Below, piece after piece: positions 4 through 16,804 of a DNA stretch of 25,983 nt. Position 1 is the first letter of the stretch, and the number at the start of each line of letters is the position of its first letter. The position numbers and the translations under genes are program-made. This DNA comes from a virus (Duplodnaviria; Caudoviricetes). Location of the stretch: the IMG/VR virus record IMGVR_UViG_3300020044_008930, positions 1-25,983 of that record. One strand, given 5' to 3'. Below the pieces are notes generated by a model, which worked only from the letters and a program-made list of their open reading frames with translations, was not told the DNA's origin and searched no databases.

Positions 4-880
4 CTTCTCTGGAAAATTTGCCGCTTGGCGGCTTGGCGCAGCGGGTTAACTGAAAGGCAAATGTGAGTAAATTATCTGATACTATTAACAGCAAATTGGC
101 GGAATATGGAATCACCCCTCACCCTAGTGAGGAAGAGACGCAACCCAAATCGGAGACGAATACTCTCCCGTATATCGAGCTGGTGCCGGTCATCTCGTCG
201 ATGGCGAGAGAGATCGGTGGGGTGCTCTCTCAGAATGGAGTCTTTGTCCGGCAGCGTGCTGCCATGACGGTCTCGCCGGATGGCCGCTTGGTGGAGATGA
301 CGGCGCGCCGCTTCCGTACCTATTGCGAGGAGCACCTTGTGACTTTCAAGTGGGCCACACCTTCTCCGAATGTTTTTGAAAAAAAGGCGCAAACCATGAC
401 GGTGGAGTCGGCCGCGACTATCCTGGAGTCCGATCAATTCCTCGCTCGTCAACGTGAGCTCATGCGCGTTGCCACGGTCCGGCAGCCGGTGAAGAGGAAG
501 GATGGGAGGGTGGAGTTGCTGGACTATGGGTATGATGCCGAGGCTCAAACATACACACAAAACTCGGGAGTGGAGTTTGCACATGATATGCCGCTCGATG
601 AGGCAAAGACGGTGTTGCGTAATCTTCTCAAGGAGTTCCCATTTGGGGATCGTCGATCAGATGGAGGATCGCGCAATGAGGCGATCGTCCTCGCATCGAT
701 GCTAGGCATGTATGCGGCCCCACTGCTCCGCCCATCGGCTAGGCGTCTCAACTTCATGTTCTCATCGAACTCAGTTGGCTCCGGTAAGACTTTGCTGGCC
801 CAGCTCGCCATCATCACAACGATCGGCTCATGTGACGTCCAGCCTGTGCCGTCTGCCGAGCGTCAAATTTTCCATAGAAG
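4..880. repeat. Imperfect 26-bp inverted repeat, 4-29 versus 855-880
   Basis: cttctctggaaaatttgccgcttggc (4-29) versus reverse complement of 855-880, cttctatggaaaatttgacgctcggc; 23/26 identical. Confidence 0.85.
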
Positions 881-986
881 TCGCACGCGGCAGCCGCCCT
901 CGCCGTATCTGGCTGAGGGTAGTTTTGTTCTGCCAACCGGATTGCCTCCCGACGCCAAAACCCCAGCACATCCCGCCGAGGCATAA
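63..986 (+). pseudogene. Truncated phage replicative helicase/P-loop NTPase; the genuine coding part probably ends near 855
   Basis: GTG start; Walker A-like SNSVGSGKTLLA near the end; after about 855 the frame reads into the antisense strand of the primase gene and becomes Pro-rich. Confidence 0.7.
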
Positions 987-1965
987 GGTCGGACAACGTC
1001 AAAGACGGAGACGACGGCGCAAAATAAAGAAGCTTCTGGATTTTCTCGCCACGCAGACACCCCGGCAGACGAGTCAATCGCACGGCACTAAGCGCGCCCG
1101 GGTCAGCACCAGCGACAACGAGACCCATGACCTTACGCTTTTCCTCATCCCATTCCTTCTTCGATCGAGCATCCACCCTGACCAGCGCATGGACAGAGCG
1201 CCCGCCTGAAGTCGTGATGGCCGCGATCCTCGGCATGATACGAGCCAAAGCAGCGAGCCAGAGCTTCACCGGAGCCTCATCAGACTCGAGGACCATCCAT
1301 CTCCAGGCCAACACCGACTCCTCGGAGCGTCGGGACATTTTCCCCAGGCGAGGATTTGGGCGAGACTTCCCATCCACCGGCTGGGCGAGAAACCAAATGC
1401 CTTCCGGTCCCGAAGTCGGTATCCGATCAGTCGGCCAGATCGCTTGGCCCTGGCTTTTGTATTCAGAAAAGACAACCACCCTCTCTCCGGCTGGAGCATT
1501 ATAAAGCCGAGCAAGGAACTCTTCAGCCGATACGGTAGCAGGATCGACCTCGGAACGATTCGCAAGCCAGACCAGATCGACCTTATCAGCCAGATCACCG
1601 GCAAGACGAGAGAGAGCATTGACATCAAAAATTCTTTTCTCTGGAGGCCTCGCTGGGCGGGTGGGAGCAAAGTGAGTTGACTCAGGAGCCGAGGCCGACC
1701 CGAGCAGATAGCCGTCAGCACCAGGACCATTCGCGGCGGAGCGGATCTTGTGCTCGAGTTCGTGCTCGGTCCAGCGATCCGCATTCCCTTGGTTCCACTC
1801 AGCCAACAAAGCCAAAGCATCCGAATGAGGAATCATAAATCCCTTCACCAGCGATTTGGCCGCCAGCAGTGTATGGGTATGTCCACCAGCCCCAGATATA
1901 GCCGGACCCACCTTTGCCAGATAACGACGCGCGCGCTCGATGACTGGAACTTTTTCCTTGCTCAC
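814..1965 (-). CDS. DNA primase: N-terminal PriCT-like helical domain plus RepB/AEP-type catalytic domain; C-terminal residues below 855 are probably chimeric
   Basis: Motifs WMVLESDE, TTSGGRSVHALVRVDA, DPGALSAVRLTRLPG; N-terminal LAEWN...WTEHELEHKIRSA; GTG at 1965 preceded by GGGGAGGGG. Confidence 0.75.
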   Translation of the reverse strand: MSKEKVPVIERARRYLAKVGPAISGAGGHTHTLLAAKSLVKGFMIPHSDALALLAEWNQGNADRWTEHELEHKIRSAANGPGADGYLLGSASAPESTHFAPTRPARPPEKRIFDVNALSRLAGDLADKVDLVWLANRSEVDPATVSAEEFLARLYNAPAGERVVVFSEYKSQGQAIWPTDRIPTSGPEGIWFLAQPVDGKSRPNPRLGKMSRRSEESVLAWRWMVLESDEAPVKLWLAALARIMPRIAAITTSGGRSVHALVRVDARSKKEWDEEKRKVMGLVVAGADPGALSAVRLTRLPGCLRGEKIQKLLYFAPSSPSLTLSDLMPRRDVLGFWRREAIRLAEQNYPQPDTARAAAACDFYGKFDARQTAQAGRHMSRSL

Positions 1966-2022
1966 AATCCCCTCCCCGTGCAGAGTCGGATCTTGTTGCA
2001 CACCGGCGACCACCCTAAAAAT

Positions 2023-2187
2023 ATGGGAGCCGTGTGGGAGTATCCCGCAAGTGCAACGAAATTAAGAAGTTCTACTGCCCTGTGGTGTAATGGTAAGGAT
2101 GGCGACACCGCATAAGATGCTGATTCACAGCAATAGCTTGCATCGTTTTGCAACATTTTCATTGAGGTATGTGGGAGCATGTGGGAG
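2023..2187 (+). other. Putative attP: tRNA-5'-like core at 2076-2096 flanked by two pairs of (A)TGTGGGAG arm-type repeats
   Basis: Repeats at 2023-2029 (atgggag), 2033-2040, 2169-2177 and 2179-2187; core tgccctgtggtgtaatggtaa; lies directly upstream of the integrase. Confidence 0.65.
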
Positions 2188-2196
2188 TTTGATGGC

Positions 2197-3231
2197 ATGG
2201 CACACTTGATTCGCAGCGCTAAGTCTCGTTTCTGGTTTCTTAGGTACAGAGATCTGGATACGGGACGATGGAGGGAACGATCCACCAGATGCGATGCGGA
2301 GGACTCTAAGGCGACTCGACGAGCGCAACGTATGGCGGAGGATGCGACGAGGCTGGAAGCGCAAGTCGGGCCTACCATCAAGGGTGAGTTTAGCGCTTGG
2401 GTTCCTGACTTTCTCGAGCGGCACTTCACGAATGTTCGATCGTTGAAGCGGTATCGGCTGGCTTGGGCGCGGCTCTCGGAGTGGCAACGATTGCGACGGG
2501 TGCGGCATCCGGCTGCGGTACGTTTTGAGCATGTGCAGGACTTCCTTGATTGGAGAAGGGCGGATGGGGCTTCGCAAAATACGGCCCGGCTGGAGTTAAA
2601 GTTTTTCTCCTTCGTCATGCAGGAGGCCATGCGACGGGAGTGGGCAGATAAGAATCCGCTCGCGTTGGCTAAGGTGCCGCGCAAGGCGTCGAAGGTGAAA
2701 AAAGAAATCAACGATGATGAGTTCAAGTTGGCTCGGCAGGCGTTTACGGCCCGCGATGGCGCGCCTTGGATGCTCACTGCTTTTGAGATCTGCGCGAATC
2801 TAGGGTGCCGATTCTCCGAGTCGGAGTTTGGAAAGGATGCGGTTGATTTTGATAAAGGCATGGTGACTATTGTGGATTCAAAGAGGGATGACACGGACCC
2901 GAGGAAATCTTTTTGCGTTCCTCTTCCTGCTACTTTGGCAGCCCATCTGAAGGGGGTATTTGAGAAGAGAGACCGCACTACCCCACCGCTCGGACTGAGC
3001 GGTGAGCATAATAGGCAGTTCAACAGAACGCTGAAGGAGGCCACGGGGGCGACTTCGCATTCGTTGAGGGTCTCCTTTGTGACTCGTTGCCACCGAGCGG
3101 GTCTGACGGAAGCGCAGGCCATGCGACTCACGAACCACTCCACTCGTTTAGTGCATTTGATTTATTCGCGGTTGAATTTTGCGGATGCTCAGGATGCGGC
3201 TGCAAAGGTGCCCCCGCCTGGTGGGATATAA
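2197..3231 (+). CDS. int: Tyrosine recombinase (phage integrase)
   Basis: Catalytic pattern GCRFSE (R), HSLRVSF (HxxR), NHS...IYSR (H, Y); N-terminal arm-binding-like segment FWFLRYRD..GRW..RST; start chosen at MAHL (upstream ATG 2179 lies inside the repeats). Confidence 0.93.
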   Translation: MAHLIRSAKSRFWFLRYRDLDTGRWRERSTRCDAEDSKATRRAQRMAEDATRLEAQVGPTIKGEFSAWVPDFLERHFTNVRSLKRYRLAWARLSEWQRLRRVRHPAAVRFEHVQDFLDWRRADGASQNTARLELKFFSFVMQEAMRREWADKNPLALAKVPRKASKVKKEINDDEFKLARQAFTARDGAPWMLTAFEICANLGCRFSESEFGKDAVDFDKGMVTIVDSKRDDTDPRKSFCVPLPATLAAHLKGVFEKRDRTTPPLGLSGEHNRQFNRTLKEATGATSHSLRVSFVTRCHRAGLTEAQAMRLTNHSTRLVHLIYSRLNFADAQDAAAKVPPPGGI

Positions 3232-3370
3232 AATCTCGCACCCAGCGCACCGTTGTCTTTCTGCCGTAAAACGGACACCCTTTTAGCTTCATGTAGGCGA
3301 TCTCGCGAAGAGAGAGACCGATGGTCTCTGCGATCTCATTTGGAAAGTGAAGGCGGTCAGGGTCCATCAT
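3128..3370 (-). CDS. Small basic HTH protein, putative excisionase; overlaps the int 3' end
   Basis: LHFPNEIAETIGLSLREIAYMKLKGCPF resembles a MerR/Xis-type winged HTH; adjacent and convergent to int; ATGA-coupled to the upstream gene. Confidence 0.6.
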   Translation of the reverse strand: MMDPDRLHFPNEIAETIGLSLREIAYMKLKGCPFYGRKTTVRWVRDFISHQAGAPLQPHPEHPQNSTANKSNALNEWSGS

Positions 3371-7389: not shown

Positions 7390-8487
7390 TTAGGAATTAG
7401 CCTGGGCGATGAGGTTGCCGACGATGGCCGTCGTGGCCACGTTTGCGAGGCGGTCCGTGTTGAGCAGATCCGTTTTGGCTTTGATGGCCGTGATGTCCGA
7501 ATTGCTTGGCGCTGTGTAGCCCGAGGACGCGAGGCGTGTGCTTGTCGCTACGTCCACTCGCGCAAGCTCCGTAGCCAACTCCGTTCGGACTGCGGCGGCA
7601 TTCTGCGCTGCGGTGCTCGCGGCTGTGTAGGCGATCGCTGCAAGGCGGGTGCTGACAGCGGCGTCGAGGCGACCTAGCTCGGTCGTGAGCTCGGTGCGGG
7701 TGGCCGATGCTATCGAAGCGGCGGAAGGCACAGATGGCGAGTTGGTGAGGGTGTCCACGGTGCCGCCTGTGATTTGTTTGGTGGCTGCGCCCCACACTGC
7801 GGTCGCGTTCGCGGCTGCTGTCGGTGCGGCGGTTGTCGGGATGGAGTCGATTTTTCCGCCGACGCGCTCGAGGTCGGCACGGACTGCGGCGACGAGGGAG
7901 ACTTCGCTGAGGTTGGTGTTGCCGATGGCGCCAACGATGGCGTTGAGGACGGCTTGGCCGTCTGCTTCGTTGAGGAGGGAGCCTTCGACTGCAGTTGCGA
8001 TCTGTGCTGTTGTCGGTGCGGCTGTGTAGCCAGATGTGGCGAGTCTGCTGGATACCGTGGCGTCGAGGTTGGCGAGCTTGGTGCTGTTGCTGTCCAACTC
8101 CGAGCGGATCTGGACCACGGTTGGGATCGAGAGCGCGGTGATGGCTGCCTCGACGAGGCTTTGGTCTGCGGGGTCGCTTGGGAGGTTGTCGGTTTTAGCC
8201 TGTATGGCGGAAATCGAGGCGCTGGGGATGTCGGCGGTGGTGATCGTGGACACTGGCACTTCGGCAGTGCCGCTCCACACGATGCTACCGCTGCCGACAT
8301 TGGCGGAGGCGGAGATGAATGCGACTTGGTAGGTGCCAGCCGTGCCGGTCATGTTGCCAGAGTAGAATCCGCTTGATCCGGTTTCGGGGCAGGAGATGGC
8401 AGAGCCTACGGCGGTTCCGGATTGGTAGCGTTGAGCGGTGACGGTGAGGCCCGATTTTGCGAGAGCGATGTTGAGTTCGTTGGCCAT
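7390..8487 (-). CDS. Ala/Thr-rich putative virion fibre/accessory protein with internal repeats
   Basis: Repeats RTEL(T/A)TEL(G/A)R(L/V)D.A.STRLA..YTA and I.AI.AKTD.L. Confidence 0.7.
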   Translation of the reverse strand: MANELNIALAKSGLTVTAQRYQSGTAVGSAISCPETGSSGFYSGNMTGTAGTYQVAFISASANVGSGSIVWSGTAEVPVSTITTADIPSASISAIQAKTDNLPSDPADQSLVEAAITALSIPTVVQIRSELDSNSTKLANLDATVSSRLATSGYTAAPTTAQIATAVEGSLLNEADGQAVLNAIVGAIGNTNLSEVSLVAAVRADLERVGGKIDSIPTTAAPTAAANATAVWGAATKQITGGTVDTLTNSPSVPSAASIASATRTELTTELGRLDAAVSTRLAAIAYTAASTAAQNAAAVRTELATELARVDVATSTRLASSGYTAPSNSDITAIKAKTDLLNTDRLANVATTAIVGNLIAQANS

Positions 8488-8491
8488 GGTT

Positions 8492-8905
8492 TTAGGAGTT
8501 GAGGATGGTGAGTGTTTCGGTGAGCGTTGCCTCGAATGTGTGCGGGGCGGCGGGCCAGTTGCTGGCGGCGGGGGCGAGACCAGAGGCGATCATGCCATCA
8601 AGCCAGCCCTGGACTTCGACGAGCTTGGGCGAGGATTTCGCAGAGGCGTCGAGGCGGAGTTTTTGGTAGAGCATCGTGGTGGAGCGGTTGCCGCCGTAGC
8701 CTTGGGAGTCGGTCCATTCCTCGGCGGTGTAGGTGGGCGCGGATGGCGTGATCCATTGGCCGTCTTGCCACGCTGCATCTTCGCTGGGCTTTGCAGGCGC
8801 TGGTTGCCATTGCTCGGCTTTGGGGTTCCCTGCTGCGATGAGTGCGGCGATGTAGCTCTCTGGGAGTTCGCGGAGTTCGTTGGTGGTTGTGTTGAGGTAA
8901 ATCAT
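8492..8905 (-). CDS. Hypothetical protein, possible fibre assembly chaperone
   Basis: PAKPSEDAAWQDGQWI resembles tail-fibre chaperone motifs; ATGA-coupled to the LamG gene. Confidence 0.6.
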   Translation of the reverse strand: MIYLNTTTNELRELPESYIAALIAAGNPKAEQWQPAPAKPSEDAAWQDGQWITPSAPTYTAEEWTDSQGYGGNRSTTMLYQKLRLDASAKSSPKLVEVQGWLDGMIASGLAPAASNWPAAPHTFEATLTETLTILNS

Positions 8906-9594
8906 GGGTAGATGCGAGGATGGTTGGCGACGGTTGCGCCGTTGTTGTTGGTGATGGCGAGTCCGCCTTTTTGGTCGGTGAGGTCGCGGACGAGGGGGGC
9001 GTAGAAGACAAGCGATTGAGGACGGATTTTGTCAGGGGTCATGCCCTTTGCGAGGGAGGCGATTTCGGCGGCGGTGAGTGATGCGTTCCAGATGCCGACT
9101 TCGGCGGATTGAAATGAGTTTAAATTGTTTGCACCGTTTCTTCCGTTAATTTGAGGGATAACAGAATTTGTAATGGAGGTAATAAGGGTATTCCCGCTTA
9201 TCCCATTGGTTCCTTGCGTCCCGTTAGCATAAATCTTCATGTCGTTTGTTGATGCAGATGTTGAAGAAAATGCGGCGTGAAACCATTGCCCACTTGTCGC
9301 TGTAAATGGGATGTTTGCCCACGCCTGATCAGCTCCAGAAAATCGTTTTTGAAAGCCTAAAAAATTACCGATTCCAGGCGTGCCAACATTGAAATTGTGA
9401 AAATAATTGACCGACCACCCTGTTGCATTGCCTGAGTTCTGCTGTTTATTTACTAAAGCATAAAAACCAGTAGCAACGGTCGGGATGTAAAACCAGCCGA
9501 CAATGGTGAGAATATCGTCCTTGTTAAAAACCAAGTTTGAAGATGACCCAATGGTCAAATACTGGCTACTTGCCGCTGTAAAGTTGAAAGCCAT
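8902..9594 (-). CDS. LamG/concanavalin-A-like lectin domain protein
   Basis: LTIVGWFY, GQWFHAA, MKIYANG, AEVGIWNASLTAAEIASL. Confidence 0.85.
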   Translation of the reverse strand: MAFNFTAASSQYLTIGSSSNLVFNKDDILTIVGWFYIPTVATGFYALVNKQQNSGNATGWSVNYFHNFNVGTPGIGNFLGFQKRFSGADQAWANIPFTATSGQWFHAAFSSTSASTNDMKIYANGTQGTNGISGNTLITSITNSVIPQINGRNGANNLNSFQSAEVGIWNASLTAAEIASLAKGMTPDKIRPQSLVFYAPLVRDLTDQKGGLAITNNNGATVANHPRIYP

Positions 9595-9595
9595 A

Positions 9596-10108
9596 TCAAG
9601 CCATGCTCCTTACTTCGACGGCGATAAACTCGGCATCGCCCGTCATTGTGTCGTTGGTGGCATCGCTGCCGACGCGAGAAATTCGCAGGCGGTAAGGCTC
9701 ACCGACAGCTACGCTGTCGAGGGTGGAAAGCGAAATGCTGGTGGTGCTGGGAATGCCGCTTGTGCCGTTTGCCGCGCCATTGCCCTCGGCTGCGGTGTCG
9801 AAGCTGTCGGCATCGAGGTCGGTGTTGCCGCGCTCCAATGCTACGCGCCAGCGCACATTGCCGGTGGTGGCGGTGGTCGCCATCCATGTGATTCGCACGC
9901 TCAAGCCGCTGGCGAGGTCTGCCGCTTCGGGGATGATTGACGGGAAGATCGCGCTCTCGATTGTGGCGTCATCGAAATCGAGGACGGCAACCGAGTTGCG
10001 CGTGTCGAGAGTGGCAAAAAGAGTGGCGGGCGGCGAGCTGTGGCGCGGCGTGAATACGGCGAGGGTCTTTGTGCCAGAGGCACCGGAGAGGATGGGTGTT
10101 GCGATCAT
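9596..10108 (-). CDS. Putative beta-sandwich virion protein
   Basis: LDFDDATIESAIF...VRITW...GNVRW...LRISR...DTMTGDA; coupled to neighbours. Confidence 0.65.
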   Translation of the reverse strand: MIATPILSGASGTKTLAVFTPRHSSPPATLFATLDTRNSVAVLDFDDATIESAIFPSIIPEAADLASGLSVRITWMATTATTGNVRWRVALERGNTDLDADSFDTAAEGNGAANGTSGIPSTTSISLSTLDSVAVGEPYRLRISRVGSDATNDTMTGDAEFIAVEVRSMA

Positions 10109-10470
10109 GCGTAGGTGAGATTGGTTTTGTTTGACCACGCGCCGGTGGCGCTGGCTTCGGCGGTGACGTTGCCGTTGGCGTCGGTGGTGGTGCGGGAGAC
10201 GTCCCAGAGGGCGCTGTCGTAGATGGACCCGCTGTTTGGGAAATCGGCGTAGGCGAGTTTGCCGTAGAAAAGATTGTTGCCGATGATGTCGAAGACTTCG
10301 ACTTTATCGGGCACCGGACGAGTGCCGATGCGGAAGACATTGCCGTTTGCGTCTTTCGAGTAGAGGCAATGGTCGGCTAGATTTTGCACCAGTTCTCCGA
10401 CTGCGAGATCGCCAGCGAGTGGGATCTTGCCGAGGACGGAGGATTTTTTGGGAATGATTTGTGTGGCCAT
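10105..10470 (-). CDS. Short fibre adaptor with a T4 gp37-N-terminus-like domain
   Basis: IIPKKSSVLGKIPLAGDLAVGELVQNLADHCLYSKD; C-terminal module shared with 11725-13347. Confidence 0.7.
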   Translation of the reverse strand: MATQIIPKKSSVLGKIPLAGDLAVGELVQNLADHCLYSKDANGNVFRIGTRPVPDKVEVFDIIGNNLFYGKLAYADFPNSGSIYDSALWDVSRTTTDANGNVTAEASATGAWSNKTNLTYA

Positions 10471-10485
10471 GTGGCTTGTTTATTT

Positions 10486-10531
10486 CGCGGTGGAGACCCC
10501 CGCGTGGCGAGGCGCTATGGAGCGCCCCGCC
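10486..10531 (-). promoter_or_regulatory. Tandem intergenic RNA hairpins with no U-tract
   Basis: 11-bp stem 10506-10516/10521-10531 and a cgcgg/ccgcg stem 10486-10504. Confidence 0.5.
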
Positions 10532-10551
10532 GGGGTTGGTTGGTTTAGGGA

Positions 10552-11445
10552 CTAGTAAGTTCCGCCATCTATGCTGGCCTCGAGGCTGTCCAGTCGTGCG
10601 TCGAGCGCGTCGTCTGCACTGGTCCTGGCTGCTGCCTCTGCCGTGATGTTGGTCTGTAGGCTGGTGTCAGCACTCGCTCTCGTGCTGGCCTCGCTTGTGA
10701 TGTTCGTCTGAAGAGTCGTGTCAGCGCTGGCTCTAGAGCTAGCCTCTGCCGTGATATTTGACTGAAGAGTCGTGTCGGCTGCTGCTCTGGCAGTCTCTTC
10801 CGAGTTGATGTCTGCCTCGGCTGCTGTGACTCTACCGGCCAATGCTGTGGCTGCTGTGTTGGTCACGCCAAGCGCGGTGGTCAGCGTTGCATCACCGGCT
10901 TCACGGTTCGAAACTTCGGAAGCGAGGGCTGCGTTGTTGCTCGAGACGTATCCAGCAAATGCGGAATCGTTCGTGGCATCCACGCTGTTGATCAAGCTGA
11001 CGATCTCGGCAAAGGTGTCGCTGTTCGCGCCTGCTGCGGAAAGGATGGCGTCGATGCGGCCTTTTTCCGTTGCGATCTTTCCGTCGAGGGTTGTGTCAGC
11101 GGAGCTACGAGCGGAGGCTTCTGCGCTGATCGCGGCTGCGCGGTCTGTGAGCTCTTGTGCGAGTCCTGCGGCGATGACGCCTTCAGCACTTTGCGCCCGT
11201 GAAATTTCCGAATTCAGCGAGGAGGTGAGTGTCGAGTCGCCTGAGCTGCGAAGCGCGGCTTCTGCTGCTACGGCGTCATTGACGAAGGTCTTCTTGGAGA
11301 AGATGTGCTCGCCACCGATTGGCAAAACGCCTTCGGCTGTGCCGATGAAGAATGATTTGTTTGCTGTGTCGAAGGCGACCTCGCCGACTTGAAGCGACAC
11401 CGGACTACCGGAGCCGCGTTTTACGCGAATGATTGGATTGGGCAT
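10552..11445 (-). CDS. Coiled-coil fibre protein
   Basis: N-terminal IRVKRG...LQVGEVAFD...FFIG; 18-aa repeats ITAEASSRASADTTLQTN; ends IDGGTY. Confidence 0.8.
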   Translation of the reverse strand: MPNPIIRVKRGSGSPVSLQVGEVAFDTANKSFFIGTAEGVLPIGGEHIFSKKTFVNDAVAAEAALRSSGDSTLTSSLNSEISRAQSAEGVIAAGLAQELTDRAAAISAEASARSSADTTLDGKIATEKGRIDAILSAAGANSDTFAEIVSLINSVDATNDSAFAGYVSSNNAALASEVSNREAGDATLTTALGVTNTAATALAGRVTAAEADINSEETARAAADTTLQSNITAEASSRASADTTLQTNITSEASTRASADTSLQTNITAEAAARTSADDALDARLDSLEASIDGGTY

Positions 11446-11497
11446 GGCTAATTAGGGTGTTGTTGGTTTTGGTTGGGTGTTCGTGGTGGGGAGATTG

Positions 11498-11725
11498 TCA
11501 AAAACTGCCGCAGTCGATGACCGGGATCATGAGGGCGTAGGCGGATGCGGTGGGCGACCACCGGTAGGGCATGCCCTCGTCGAGAGCCATGTAGAGGCGG
11601 TCTGATTTTCCGACGCTCGGGAAATTGGAGCGGGTGGGATATTCGACGACGATGCCTGGCAGCGTGAGGTCGAAGCTCGAGAGATCGAGTTGCTGGGTTA
11701 GGTTGCTCTCGGTGATCGTTGTCAT
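11498..11725 (-). CDS. 75-aa fibre connector-like protein
   Basis: VEYPTRSNFPSVGKSDRLYMALDEG..YRW; ends IDCGSF; TAATG overlap with the upstream gene. Confidence 0.7.
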   Translation of the reverse strand: MTTITESNLTQQLDLSSFDLTLPGIVVEYPTRSNFPSVGKSDRLYMALDEGMPYRWSPTASAYALMIPVIDCGSF

Positions 11726-13347
11726 TAGTAAGCGAGAGTCTCCCGGTTGAGCCACGATCCGGTGGCGGATGAGGTGGCGAGGACGCGCCCGGCGGCGTCT
11801 GTCGTGGAGCGGCGGACGGTCCACGCTGTGGCGGTCTCTGGCAGGGCTGGCAAGGCGGGGCGGTTGGCGTTGAGGAGGCGTCCGCTGTAGGTCGTGAGTC
11901 CGTCCGTGCTGGTGGCGAATGCGAAGAGGTAGAGGGTGGGATCGATGGGCGGCTGGACGCTGCGGAGGCCGAGGGCGGTGGCGGCGATCTGGGTGCCGAC
12001 TGCGGGCGCGGCGTCGAAGGTGATCGTGCCGCTGGCTTCGCTGACCGTGTAGTCGGTGACGGGGGTCTGGGTGACGCCATTGAGGGCGACGAGGACATGC
12101 TCGGGGTCGTTGCCTGCGAGGCCGTCGATAAGGAATGTGGTCGCGCTGCCGTCGCCGGTGCGGACGGTGGTGTTGATGCTGAGGCCGGGGGCCGATGCGA
12201 CGATGAAAGCGGAGAGGCCGGTGATGTCCGTGGCGGGGTGCGTGTGGATCGTGTCGGCCTTGGAAAGCTCGACCCAGAGCTTGAATGCGGGCGAGGCGGA
12301 TGGATTGAATGCGGCCCAATAGCTAGTGCCGGGTGGATAGCCGGGGTTTGGTTCGGCGATGCGGATGTAGAGAGCGCCGCCGTAGCTGACGATTTGTCCG
12401 GGCCAGTAGTCGGCACCGTTGTCGTAGGCTCCGCGATAGTCTGCGGGCTCGGGCTGGAGGGCGGTGTCGGCGAGAGCGCCTTGCGCGGCGGTGGCTTTGC
12501 CGTCGATCTGCGTCTGGAGCGATCCGATGCTGGCGGCGGCTTCGGCGATGCTGTCCAGCGCGGCGGGGTCGAGGTTCGCGGCGAGGAAATCGATCCTTTG
12601 GCCGAGGGCTGTATCTGATGCAGTGAGGGCGGCGAGGTCGGCATTTAAGCCGGTGATCTCGCCTTTGAGGTGCGTGTGCGCGGACGGCGCAAATGTGGCT
12701 GGCTTGCCGGTAAGGCTTGACCAATCGACGGGCGGGGAGACAGCGACGACGGCGCTGGCAAAGTCGGTGATGTCGGCAGAGGTGTGCGTGTGGGCGGATG
12801 GGGCGAATGTGGCGGGCTTGCCGGTGACGCTGGCCCATGTGGGAGGAGGGGCGAGAAGCGCGATGGCCTGCGCGGTCCGCAGCGGGGTCATCCAGGCGGA
12901 GTTGTCGGTGCCTGCCTCGGCTTGCGCTTGGGTGGCTTTGCCGTCGGGCATGGCGGCGGGTGTGCCTTCGCTGCCGAGGATGACGGAGTTTTGCACTTCC
13001 ACGGGGAGAGTGGCGGTGCGCGTGGCTTCGCCGGTGGAAGCCCACTTGACCTCGAGGAGGGCGGTGACTACGGCGGGGGAGGATGCGAATGCGGCCTCGA
13101 GGGGGATGGTGTTGAGGTCGAGCACACCGGCGGCGGCGAGGGCGAGGAAATTGGCGTCGGCGTAGCTTTGCTTGAGCGCGGTGGAAAATGTGGTGCCGGA
13201 GGGCGTAGCGACGGCGGCCCCGCGAAGCACAAACTGGATCTCGATGGGGAGAAGGTCGCGGCGTTTAAGCGTGAGCGAGGCGAGGGCGGCGGAGGATGCC
13301 GCGCTTTTTACGAACCGCCGAGATGTGAGATCGATGAATAACTTCAT
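11725..13347 (-). CDS. Tail fibre protein 2 (baseplate-anchor-like N-terminus, HxH fibre repeats)
   Basis: W..(V/L)TGKPATFAPSAHTH repeats, ATQAQAEAGTDN..WMTPLR, GDGSATTF...V.LNGVTQ.P..DY domain. Confidence 0.85.
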   Translation of the reverse strand: MKLFIDLTSRRFVKSAASSAALASLTLKRRDLLPIEIQFVLRGAAVATPSGTTFSTALKQSYADANFLALAAAGVLDLNTIPLEAAFASSPAVVTALLEVKWASTGEATRTATLPVEVQNSVILGSEGTPAAMPDGKATQAQAEAGTDNSAWMTPLRTAQAIALLAPPPTWASVTGKPATFAPSAHTHTSADITDFASAVVAVSPPVDWSSLTGKPATFAPSAHTHLKGEITGLNADLAALTASDTALGQRIDFLAANLDPAALDSIAEAAASIGSLQTQIDGKATAAQGALADTALQPEPADYRGAYDNGADYWPGQIVSYGGALYIRIAEPNPGYPPGTSYWAAFNPSASPAFKLWVELSKADTIHTHPATDITGLSAFIVASAPGLSINTTVRTGDGSATTFLIDGLAGNDPEHVLVALNGVTQTPVTDYTVSEASGTITFDAAPAVGTQIAATALGLRSVQPPIDPTLYLFAFATSTDGLTTYSGRLLNANRPALPALPETATAWTVRRSTTDAAGRVLATSSATGSWLNRETLAY

Positions 13348-13426
13348 GCCGCTACGAGGCGGCGTGATGTCAAATGCGCGGGGGGCGCTGAACTAGGTCA
13401 GGAGCGGAGCGGAGGGGGAGAGACTC

Positions 13427-13454
13427 ACGCGGAGGCGCGGGGGGCGCGGAGGGG
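13427..13454. repeat. 28-bp GC-rich direct repeat, copy 1
   Basis: acgcggaggcgcggggggcgcggagggg; 27/28 identical to 15892-15919. Confidence 0.9.
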
Positions 13455-13455
13455 T

Positions 13456-14589
13456 CTATACACTAGGCCAGAGCTTTTGCGGGCCGTAATAGACCGCCTG
13501 AGCGGGAGTTGACCCTGCATAAATTGCGGAGACGAGGCTGCTGCCTTTGTAGATTGGCGGGACATCTTGGAGTGCATAACGCCTAATGACTCCAGCCCCT
13601 GCGCTGCCAGCGGCAACCGACCCATCGTCTGATATCGCTCCAATGGTATCCCATTGGAACTGCCAAGCTGTGCCGGTCCAGAGATAAAGTTTCCCGCCAA
13701 CATTTAGCAGTGTGCCTGCACTATTGAGCCGAGGAGAGCCGGGCGGCATATCCCCGCCCAGTTGCGCCCATATTGCCCCAGTTTTTTGAAAAACTTTTAC
13801 AGCAGACGCGTCTGATGTTTCAGCGGCTAAAATGGTTCCGTCAAAATTTGAAAAAAAGGCTGTCCCTGTGTTTAATATGTTGTTTGCAAACTGCCAACTC
13901 GATCCATTCCAGTTAAATTCTCTTAAAGAACCGCCAATAAAAACGAAAACACTGGAACCATTGCCGGAAATCTCAAAATTCCTAAGAGTATTCCCATAAG
14001 TCCCATTAAACTGGAAAAACAAACTCGGCCTCCCAGTCGCCTCAATAAGGTTATTGAAGCTTTGAAAATAAACAAAACGAAGCGTCGCGTCGTCGCTAAA
14101 TCGAATGCTCCTAGGTATATATTCTGAAGAAGAGATACGGTTTGCATATCGCGTGATTTTTGTTCCCGACAAACTGGCTGGCGCGCTTAAATCTGCGGGC
14201 ACAAATGGATTGATCGAGTCAGAGTTTCGCCCACTTATTTGGATTCCAAAATACTTAGAGTAATTTGGGGAGTGAAAAGTAAAGTCCCAAGCAACATTTT
14301 GGCCATCTTTGGAAATCTCAACCAAGTTATATCCTTCATCGTAGATTTCCGAGCCCCCGCTCCAGCCTCCTAGCCCTGATACTGTTAACCATTGAGACCC
14401 ATCCCAATCTACAGCTCCGATATACCCCTCAAATTGGTTTCCGTTTACTCCTGTGGGGTAAGTTAAAGCGGTTTGAGCTCTCCAAAAAGCACGGAGGCCG
14501 TTTCCAGACATTAAAACTTTGGTAGGAGACCCGAGCTGTGGCCCGCTTGACGGGCTGATTGGCCCTGTTGCAACAAGTTTCAAGCTCAT
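13456..14589 (-). CDS. Putative receptor-binding beta-propeller-like protein with an AT-rich body
   Basis: Repeats W.G..WQ, ISKDGQ/ISGNGS/ISDDGS, WAQLGGD; ATGA-coupled to fibre 1. Confidence 0.7.
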   Translation of the reverse strand: MSLKLVATGPISPSSGPQLGSPTKVLMSGNGLRAFWRAQTALTYPTGVNGNQFEGYIGAVDWDGSQWLTVSGLGGWSGGSEIYDEGYNLVEISKDGQNVAWDFTFHSPNYSKYFGIQISGRNSDSINPFVPADLSAPASLSGTKITRYANRISSSEYIPRSIRFSDDATLRFVYFQSFNNLIEATGRPSLFFQFNGTYGNTLRNFEISGNGSSVFVFIGGSLREFNWNGSSWQFANNILNTGTAFFSNFDGTILAAETSDASAVKVFQKTGAIWAQLGGDMPPGSPRLNSAGTLLNVGGKLYLWTGTAWQFQWDTIGAISDDGSVAAGSAGAGVIRRYALQDVPPIYKGSSLVSAIYAGSTPAQAVYYGPQKLWPSV

Positions 14590-15848
14590 CCTGTGACGAT
14601 GTAGAGAGTCGTTGCGACTGGAGAGGCAGGCATGGTGGCGACAACGGCGATGGCGGTGATGTCGACAGAGGTGGGCAAGTAGTTTGAGTGTGTGTGGTTG
14701 CCTGCCGCAAATGTTCCTGCCGTCGTTCCGAAGGAGCCTGCCTGCAAGACACCACTGGTTCCGGTGATGATTGGCAAAGTCGCAGTCGTGCCGATGGCTC
14801 CGGCGGTAGTGATGTTCCCGTGCGTGTGGTTGCCAAGGGCCACCGTGCTCGATGTTGTGCCTGTCGGGATGCGAGCGAGAGCGAGTGTGCCGCTGGTGAT
14901 GTCGGTGGCGGCGTGGGTGTGTGTGGAAGCCGCGTAACTCCCTACTGCCTGCTTGCCATCTAGCGCCGTCTGCAAGCCAGTAGTGTCCGAAATAGCGTGG
15001 GTGTGTGTGGTCGCTGCTTTGCCATCAAGAGCTGTCTGCAAACCTGTCGTGTCCGAAATAGTGTGGGTGTGGGCCTCTGGCGGGAAGGTGCTGGGCTTGT
15101 CGGTCAGGTCGTTGTAGCTGGTGATGCCGCTTGGCGTCTGCGGCACCCATGCGGTGCCGTCCCAGGTGACGACTTGGCCGCTTGTGGCGGTGGATTGTGT
15201 GAGGTCGGAAAGCGGGTGGGTGTGAGTCGCTGGCGTGAATGTGGTGGGCTTGTCGGTCAGGTCATTCCATGACGAGACGCCTCCTCCGCCTCCGCCGAGC
15301 TCTTCGATGGCTTGAGCCACGCGCAAGGGCGACATCCATTTTGTGTTGTCGGAACCGGCTTCTGCTTCGGCTTGCGTGGCGAGAAAATTGGGTGTGCTCG
15401 AGGTATAGAAGATCGGCAGGTCTGCGGGTGTGCCTTCGTCGCCACGGATAACATCGTTGAAGATCAAGATCGGGAGCGTCAGCGAGGAGCCGACGGAAGA
15501 GCCGCTCACCCACTGCACCTCGAGCATCGCAGTGATGCTGGCGGGCTCTTCGGGGAATAGTGCCTCGAGTGCCGTGGTGTTGAGGTTAAATGCTCCGGCG
15601 TAAACGGTGTCCGCGCCTGTGCCTGTGACTGAGAGCGTGTCGGTGGCTAGAAACTCCCCGGCGAAATCCTCCGTGGCCTTCACGCCCACCCTGGCGATCG
15701 TGCCGACGGGCAGCGACTGGACGGCCCCGGCGCGCAGGAATTGCACCTCGAAGGCATCGTTGTCCCGGCGCTTAAATTCCAGACGGGTCGCAGGGCGAGT
15801 GGCGGTGGTAAGAATCTTCCGGGAATCGATGTCTATGAATATACGCAT
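14586..15848 (-). CDS. Tail fibre protein 1, paralogue of 11725-13347
   Basis: MRIFID...KRRD...EVQF; SWNDLTDKPTTF.P..HTH repeats; 66-bp duplicated HTH.ISDTTGLQTALDGK; ends TTLYIVTG. Confidence 0.85.
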   Translation of the reverse strand: MRIFIDIDSRKILTTATRPATRLEFKRRDNDAFEVQFLRAGAVQSLPVGTIARVGVKATEDFAGEFLATDTLSVTGTGADTVYAGAFNLNTTALEALFPEEPASITAMLEVQWVSGSSVGSSLTLPILIFNDVIRGDEGTPADLPIFYTSSTPNFLATQAEAEAGSDNTKWMSPLRVAQAIEELGGGGGGVSSWNDLTDKPTTFTPATHTHPLSDLTQSTATSGQVVTWDGTAWVPQTPSGITSYNDLTDKPSTFPPEAHTHTISDTTGLQTALDGKAATTHTHAISDTTGLQTALDGKQAVGSYAASTHTHAATDITSGTLALARIPTGTTSSTVALGNHTHGNITTAGAIGTTATLPIITGTSGVLQAGSFGTTAGTFAAGNHTHSNYLPTSVDITAIAVVATMPASPVATTLYIVTG

Positions 15849-15849
15849 G

Positions 15850-16185
15850 CTATTGCCTTGAGGGGGTGTCAAAAGCAGACGGGGAGGGCTTACGCGGAGG
15901 CGCGGGGGTCGCGGAGGGGGGAGAGAAACTGGAAACCGGAGACTTGAGACTTGAAACCTCGATGGCTTCCCATTTGCCGAGCGGACACCTTTCGGTTGCC
16001 ATGCGGAGTTTTGCCCAAGTGCTGCAACCGCATTTGCGGCAGCGGCCGGTGTTGTTGAGGGCGGTTGCGTCCCATTCTGGGCAGGATCGGCAGATGGCTT
16101 CGCGGGTTGCGAGTGCTTCGGGTGGCGTGGTGGCGAAGCCGGAGCGGGCGAAGCGGTGCGCGGCGTTGCCGAAGCGGGCGAGCAT
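15850..16185 (-). CDS. Small Cys-rich (Zn-binding-like) phage protein
   Basis: R.AICRSCPEW...RCRKCGC....KLRMATERCPLGKW; the frame then runs through repeat DNA. Confidence 0.75.
   Translation of the reverse strand: MLARFGNAAHRFARSGFATTPPEALATREAICRSCPEWDATALNNTGRCRKCGCSTWAKLRMATERCPLGKWEAIEVSSLKSPVSSFSPPSATPAPPRKPSPSAFDTPSRQ
15892..15919. repeat. 28-bp GC-rich direct repeat, copy 2
   Basis: acgcggaggcgcgggggtcgcggagggg. Confidence 0.9.
15924..15958. repeat. Degenerate heptamer tandem array, 5 units
   Basis: agaaact ggaaacc ggagact tgagact tgaaacc. Confidence 0.85.
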
Positions 16186-16204
16186 TTGGGCGCGGCGAGC
16201 GAGC

Positions 16205-16804
16205 CTATGAGAATGTGACGGTATAGGTTCCACCTTCATAAGAACCCCATCCATCTGGCGGAACATAGGTATATGCTGTATAAGTCTTACCGTTTATTAT
16301 TATAGATGAAATGTTAACTTCATAAGTCTCACACAAATCACTTGGCGTTGCTAAAGAGATAGGAAACCCTGCCTGTGTATCCATAACATTAAGAATGAGG
16401 CATCCGTTTTCAAGGATATAAATAGATGATTCAATTACTCCGTCATCTCCATAGCTTTGATAAAAGCCGCAATCTGTTCCTAGAGGGGGGGCAGCATATA
16501 TGTCTTGCGCCTTCAATGGAGGATCTCCTATGCAATCAGTCGGAGTTATCCAAGAACCTGAATATCCACCAGAAAACGGGGTTCCATTTACAACAATAGA
16601 AAATGAAATCGAGACATTTGTGAATGCAGCTGGGTCTGTGCCTAAAAGTTTTTTTGTAAAATTAGGGTCGCTAGGAGGATTGATTGGTTTGATTTGAAAA
16701 CATCCGCAACCCCCACAACACGCGCAATTCACAGCGCGAAGGCCGCCGCCTTCTTCGTCGGTTTTGATTTTTACTGCGCCGGAGGATGTGAGGCCGAGGG
16801 TCAT
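16205..16804 (-). CDS. Variable Cys-rich tail-associated protein
   Basis: GC-rich N-terminus ending RAVNCACCGGCGC, followed by an AT-rich body. Confidence 0.7.
   Translation of the reverse strand: MTLGLTSSGAVKIKTDEEGGGLRAVNCACCGGCGCFQIKPINPPSDPNFTKKLLGTDPAAFTNVSISFSIVVNGTPFSGGYSGSWITPTDCIGDPPLKAQDIYAAPPLGTDCGFYQSYGDDGVIESSIYILENGCLILNVMDTQAGFPISLATPSDLCETYEVNISSIIINGKTYTAYTYVPPDGWGSYEGGTYTVTFS

Follow-up and report, generated by a model that had tools for sequence, protein, structure and literature searches.

The region at 1958-2187 of the window (by which we mean the whole stretch of 25,983 nucleotides analysed here, a linear virus record of 26 kb that includes genes for head, tail and lysis) reads, with a probability that we put at roughly 0.88, as the attP of a temperate Chthoniobacterales phage, whose integrase (Int) is predicted to recombine in the D-loop region of a host tRNA-Gln(UUG) gene, with the prophage lying upstream of the tRNA. 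This attP belongs to a known, rare class (integration at tRNA 5' ends); the integrase clade and the host group are new, and the mapping is unusually thorough for such a site. If the window's phage behaves as its relatives do, one junction would consist of the host promoter, a 21-bp tRNA fragment, the right arm and int, and the other of the phage left arm, the intact tRNA and host DNA.

The probable attachment site and its neighboring genes

The site and the genes around it comprise the following features:

814..1965, minus strand: primase-like gene diverging from att (PHROG 2597, E 6.3e-14)
1958..1986, plus strand: predicted phage promoter TTGCTC-17-CAGAGT, pointing at the core
1996..2024, plus strand: second candidate promoter TTGCAC-17-AAATAT, shared with the window's close relatives only
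2022..2049, plus strand: left (P) arm-type repeats, with TATGGGAG at 2022-2029, TGTGGGAG at 2033-2040 and an inverted copy at 2043-2049, putatively bound by Int
2060-2072, 2113-2125 and 2151-2163: weak IHF-like sites between arms and core, with 1-2 mismatches to the IHF consensus
2076..2096, plus strand: att core TGCCCTGTGGTGTAATGGTAA, identical to bases 1-21 of the host tRNA-Gln(UUG), which span the 5' strands of acceptor and D-stem as well as the D-loop
2170..2187, plus strand: right (P') arm-type repeat pair, copies at 2170-2177 and 2180-2187
2197..3231, plus strand: tyrosine integrase, 344 aa (PHROG 1, E 5.9e-35)
3128..3367, minus strand: conserved small protein, 79 aa, convergent with int, which it adjoins in 7/7 elements tested

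The original prediction held that the core is a tRNA-Gln-like 5' end, that the match stops where the CAC closing the D-stem would be expected, and that it lies between two tandem repeat pairs and before int. All of this agrees with what was found: real tRNA-Gln(UUG) genes start with the 21-mer followed by CAC, the core is followed by GGAT with no CAC, and both repeat pairs were located in the window, with 100 bp between the end of the core and the conserved int start (ATG at 2197). In a viral collection, exact matches to the 21-mer stood just 5' of a homologous int in 8/8 cases (Int identity 65-99%), and the 21 bases are invariant in these related phages while the bases on both sides of the core vary, so a chance origin can be dismissed. 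Metagenome matches to the core plus G had int downstream in 10/10, and the control, the 21-mer read backwards, gave 0 matches in sets of 17, 401 and 102 genomes. Rfam (E up to 5) gave no match on 1800-2400 and ARAGORN called 0 tRNA genes over the whole window, which is itself a genome fragment. Phages do carry tRNAs with such 5' ends (a looser pattern has 101 viral matches, of which 62 are complete tRNA genes), which would suit the idea that the 21-mer plays no part in integration, being either the remnant of a phage tRNA gene or a coincidental match; yet 29 of the same 101 are fragments directly 5' of the same Int family, and the ends of the mapped prophages coincide with the core, which already refutes that idea and leaves it a negligible probability. 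Five viral contigs (L155, L165, L198, L229 and L238) carry tRNA genes with a CUA anticodon and a Gln-like 5' end; these are probably amber-suppressor tRNAs of recoded phages, unconnected to the attP.

Left and right arms of a single element have a word of at least 8 bases in common in 12 of the 15 elements compared (these 15, like the 14 crossover comparisons and the 23 phage-side flanks discussed below, include G002:C171/G002:C5, later found to be no pair), and in non-cognate arm pairs the mean shared word is 5.2-6.9 bases. The shared word differs from one Int lineage to another, as would be expected of arms bound by Int, and we infer that Int binds the TGTGGGAG arms. The second P' copy contains GGGAG 9 nt 5' of the int start, so that it may double as a ribosome-binding site.

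Lambda-type attP sites are built around arm sites, IHF and Xis. The present site resembles them in its paired direct repeats on both sides, its IHF-like sites and its small convergent gene, and differs from them in that the right side of the phage site lacks an inverted core-type sequence. Int gave no match to a Pfam arm-binding domain (E up to 10). Int itself is intact, with all six invariant catalytic-type residues (R211, K235, H294, R297, H320 and Y329, numbered from an ATG at 2179), and found no match among 50,697 GenBank phage records. The 79-aa convergent gene is a candidate excisionase with no named family, its protein family giving weak hints only (PHROG 66 at E 0.12 in 2/7 members).

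Elsewhere in the window, the ORFs at 63-986 (plus strand) and 814-1965 (minus strand) overlap by ~170 bp; the G004 homologue of the former is similar over only 263 of 307 aa, so the end of this ORF may be rearranged or misassembled. Long Ala/Thr-rich ORFs at 7390-16266 (minus strand), between the lysis and tape-measure genes, probably encode tail fibres.

Probable host, prophage boundaries and integrase clades

A search of genomes with the 21-mer, as the original prediction proposed, found it exactly in 58/102 genomes in the family of G001 (Terrimicrobiaceae); of the 61 matches passed to ARAGORN, 58 are full tRNA-Gln(UUG) genes and 3 are cut by contig ends. Genomes with Int homologues have tRNA-Gln genes that start with the fragment. 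This distribution of the 21-mer, together with the location of the Int relatives, makes a Chthoniobacterales bacterium (Verrucomicrobia) the probable host. The suggestion that the core could identify the host therefore stands insofar as the host is narrowed to Chthoniobacterales, and does not stand for the core alone, which is not exclusive (6/401 genomes sampled across the phylum, three of them outside the family list).

Prophages with a homologous Int are bounded at the core, as had been predicted for a phage integrating at a tRNA 5' end. Mapping gave four elements with both ends on a single contig:

G004:C20: 30,156 bp, CUG target
G008:C12: 84,543 bp, UUG target
G016:C3: 44,331 bp, CUG target
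G015:C110 (L145, 44381-53075): 8,694 bp, CUG target, int inverted

In 4/4 of these the order is host flank, 5' fragment (21 bp in each), element, phage arm and intact tRNA-Gln. The fragment lies 5' of the intact gene, in the same orientation and within the 2-200 kb used to define 5'-fragment tDNA elements, and the tyrosine integrase lies inside the mapped elements, with int whole in the prophages. In these relatives, then, it is the fragment that adjoins the host promoter, with the intact tRNA downstream of the phage arm, so the predicted cutting of the intact tRNA from its native promoter holds for them. The closest mapped prophage, G004:C20 (whose target is the CUG isoacceptor), matches 15/26 tested window ORFs; int (64%) comes first, and the primase homologue (69%) and arm come last, directly 5' of the intact tRNA, which is the window's gene order opened at att. 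Once the phage is integrated, the primase-like gene would be the prophage gene nearest to the rebuilt tRNA. L145 is low in GC, belongs to the Gln-5' Int clade and may be a satellite or an island.

Set against the sequence 5' of unoccupied tRNA-Gln genes elsewhere, the host flank to the left of the fragment matched in 8/13 comparisons (6 junctions) and gave no match to the chosen empty sites in 5/13; right-flank comparisons matched in 3/9 (two of which involve a locus later recognised as a scar) and did not in 6/9. G011 compared with the empty UUG site of G013 agrees in both flanks (449 nt at 84% and 1261 nt at 78%), and the G013 CUG junction matches the empty CUG site of G011. In viral contig L180, the 136 nt left of the core are identical to the L152 attP and an intact tRNA follows. 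G002:C5 was tried as the tRNA-side junction of the G002:C171 prophage and rejected, as the usual host gene stands directly upstream of it, which marks a scar and not a pair. To the left of the fragment, G006:C90, G007:C16 and G009:C29 carry arm-like or phage-type sequence unlike the right arm; these are likely tandem integrations at one tRNA.

Among the metagenomes and runs searched there is no integrated copy of the exact window phage, and junctions are seen in relatives only: a metagenome scan for the tRNA-side junction of the window's own phage gave 0, the core-plus-G metagenome matches are the free-phage form in 9/10 cases (the tenth has a 44% Int), and the contigs of 8 of 24 listed runs hold no junction at the core of this phage. 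Two metagenome scans and 8 runs without a junction are what would be seen if the site were real for the clade and the window's own lineage no longer integrated, its attP being a relic. Rare forms, however, drop out of assembled contigs; Int retains its full catalytic-type set, the core is invariant while adjacent bases drift among close relatives, and in G002:C171 a 66% Int sits at a host junction carrying the same 21-mer. We consider a relic improbable.

The Int tree, from the quick tree search only, has 59 rows (the window, 50/59 genome loci and 8/26 viral loci; 7 partial genome loci were left out and 2 dropped as short). A 26-row clade (SH-aLRT 100) contains 25/25 rows with a Gln 5' fragment, and its 26th row is the inverted-int element, with the fragment lying beyond int; among the other 33 rows, a loose pattern finds a reversed T-loop/3' motif in 29 and none in 4. 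Going by these sequence motifs, the window's Int clade is one that targets Gln 5' ends, with UUG and CUG targets interleaved, and its sister clade is one that carries ordinary tRNA 3' ends; the tree, having no outgroup, gives no direction for the switch between 5' and 3' use. The sister clade (L036-L074, from Verrucomicrobiota and Planctomycetota) carries TACTGCAC-type arm repeats, and its int is preceded by a tRNA 3' end in reversed orientation; we take its main target to be tRNA-Gly. Runs X1, X3 and X15 contain a sibling phage with the window's primase and left arm (window 1700-2067) followed by a CUG-type core, which reads as an isoacceptor switch by module exchange.

Predicted strand exchange and promoter swap

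Fragment and tRNA are identical up to base 21 in 13 of the 14 comparisons and up to base 23 in one (the 14 including the false pair named above). Bases 14-20 of the tRNA are the D-loop, and the stop at base 21 points to a crossover there; we infer that strand exchange ends at or just before base 21. On the phage side, bases 22-32 are unconserved (no more than 0.38 bits across 26 halves), so the phage half-site is no mirror of the D-stem, while base 21 tracks the isoacceptor (A in 12, G in 14). The phage half-site thus looks degenerate and dependent on the arms. The tRNA-Gln(UUG) gene does read GTGT-AATGGTA-ACAC, a 4-bp inverted repeat around 7 bases, and the sister clade carries T-loop ends; both would suit a symmetric core of the lambda type, with the D-loop (bases 14-20) as a 7-bp overlap and the inverted repeat of the D-stem on either side; such a core would add a third symmetric tRNA sublocation beside the anticodon and T loops. 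The CAC is not kept on the phage side, however (C stands at base 22 in 5/26), the dependence of base 21 on the isoacceptor fits a homology region rather than a binding site, and the conservation of the 26 phage halves lends a symmetric D-stem core no support. The better fit is an asymmetric site that depends on the arms and ends at base 21; the symmetric core is a possibility that we hold to be doubtful.

In the circular phage, the promoter at 1958-1986 would drive int. Integration would swap promoters, the tRNA coming under the phage promoter at 1958-1986 with a leader of ~80 nt and int ending up behind the host tRNA promoter. As the interval from core to int holds no terminator-like site, transcription from the host promoter would continue into int in a lysogen, and Int could lower its own expression by binding the right arm.

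Native UUG flanks carry TTGCnn-17-nAnnnT near the tRNA in 41/58 family genomes. On the phage side, TTGnnn-16/17-nAnnnT stands 88-129 nt 5' of the core in 22/23 flanks vs 1/20 host flanks; the 23 are related, so that the counts are not independent trials, and they include the false pair and L115, later recognised as a scar. A matrix was made from 11 of the 20 host flanks; with it, the phage flanks score 9.39 on average, compared with 5.79 when shuffled (0/300 reach 9.39) and 5.05 on the reverse strand, and 11/23 single flanks reach p<0.05. A generic sigma-70 scan found no promoter, 1958-1986 included; the phage promoter agrees with the E. coli consensus at 6/12 positions, and the native promoter also at only 6/12. 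From these motifs we consider it likely that the rebuilt tRNA runs on the phage promoter.

The tRNA could instead be transcribed from another phage promoter or by read-through, with the 1958-1986 motif kept for an overlapping primase start. The -35 of this motif does overlap the likely start (the first codons) of the primase-like ORF, no other site in the window scores as high with the matrix as the candidate at 1996-2024 (p 0.013 from 300 shuffles), and the generic scan was negative. Yet the motif stands at the same distance in L106, L115, L118, L136 and L131, where no adjacent primase homologue was found, it is present in scars lacking the primase gene, and primase transcription runs away from the tRNA. 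We think this alternative unlikely and retain 1958-1986 as the likely promoter of the rebuilt tRNA.

Probable prophage scars at host tRNA-Gln genes, and known integration systems

A profile built from free-phage left flanks alone matched 5/58 host UUG flanks at E<1e-3 (G475, G002, G463, G457 and G459), the best reversed control reaching E 1.4. In G475, G002 and G463 the tRNA is preceded by ~120 bp of phage-type sequence comprising promoter and arm (in G002, 90/133 columns are identical to a phage flank). Directly upstream comes the usual host gene (72-89% to its copies at empty sites); no tRNA fragment is left, and the native promoter has a changed -10. No Int was found at E<=1e-40 in G475, G463, G457 and G459 (incomplete assemblies), a search of the scars for the tRNA fragment gave nothing convincing, and in G002 and G475 the stretch of ~150 nt that separates the native from the phage promoter had no match in the sequences searched. 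On these sequence features, L115 (G002:C5), L283 (G475:C322) and L274 (G463:C113) are probable prophage scars, with misassembly or the capture of a host promoter by a phage as the alternatives; weaker cases are L268, L279, L275, L269 and L271. The free-phage profile gave no new scar on 36 CUG flanks, where only two known junctions reached E<1e-3. At CUG sites, 7 intact-tRNA flanks resemble the G008 phage-side flank with z of at least 6.8 (among 30 loci of 87 matches), some of them probably resident elements. Such G008-like tRNA-Gln(CUG) flanks are found in soil-type genomes (L348-L352, L354, L355, L357 and L358); in two of these, L351 and L358, the promoter motif is retained and the leader is shorter.

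We lean, by a little, toward the view that several Chthoniobacterales lineages have deleted the prophage but kept its promoter and arm, the phage promoter being domesticated while the native one decays, in a ratchet that would rewrite tRNA promoters family-wide. On this view the prophage would take over the transcription of the essential tRNA-Gln and would therefore be deletable save for promoter and arm.

Reverse-orientation (5'-fragment) tDNA islands were reportedly described by Zhao and Williams in 2002. Islander counts 159 5'-fragment islands out of 3919, and the available part of that account names anticodon and T-stem/junction subsites only (PMC4383910). The present elements resemble those islands, as described there, in having the fragment 5' of the intact tRNA, the same orientation and the integrase inside, and differ from the listed subsites (PMC4383910) in an identity that stops at base 21 and does not reach the anticodon arm. 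Klebsiella genomic islands at the 5' end of the tRNA gene arg2 have an integrase of clade I.d and a D-loop sublocation (10.1101/2020.11.02.365908); as here, the repeat spans the acceptor 5' strand, D-stem and D-loop and the element lies 5' of the tRNA, but the present target is tRNA-Gln in Verrucomicrobia, with both isoacceptors used and complete phages involved. The accessible description of the arg2 islands gives no element promoter map or scars, unlike the analysis here (10.1101/2020.11.02.365908).

In pTN3-like archaeal integrases the attB is likewise the 5' part of a tRNA gene, and the rebuilt tRNA runs on the integrase promoter, an arrangement seldom met in bacteria according to a review (PMC8371274). 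Those suicidal integrases are split by integration, whereas the att here lies 100 bp 5' of an intact int with arm repeats. In the tRNA-dependent lysogeny of mycobacteriophages, a phage tRNA takes the place of a host tRNA whose gene is disrupted (PMC10865867). The present case would resemble it in that the lysogen's supply of an essential tRNA hangs on the prophage, and differs in that the host tRNA-Gln is rebuilt at the right junction and only its promoter would be phage-derived. A literature search (titles and abstract openings, with few subscription journals) returned no Verrucomicrobia tRNA-Gln case, experimental D-loop crossover or tRNA promoter scars.

Of the subsites used for integration into tRNA genes, this one has been studied least, and an entire integrase clade, with prophages and empty sites mapped, is now available for it; with a sister clade on ordinary 3' ends the switch of subsite and orientation becomes testable. 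Tools that seek 3' tRNA fragments alone would miss such prophage ends. An uncultured group of lake phages is linked to Chthoniobacterales, in which the predicted promoter swap would tie an essential tRNA to the prophage and put int behind the host tRNA promoter, and the scars suggest that phage promoters can become fixed on core host genes.
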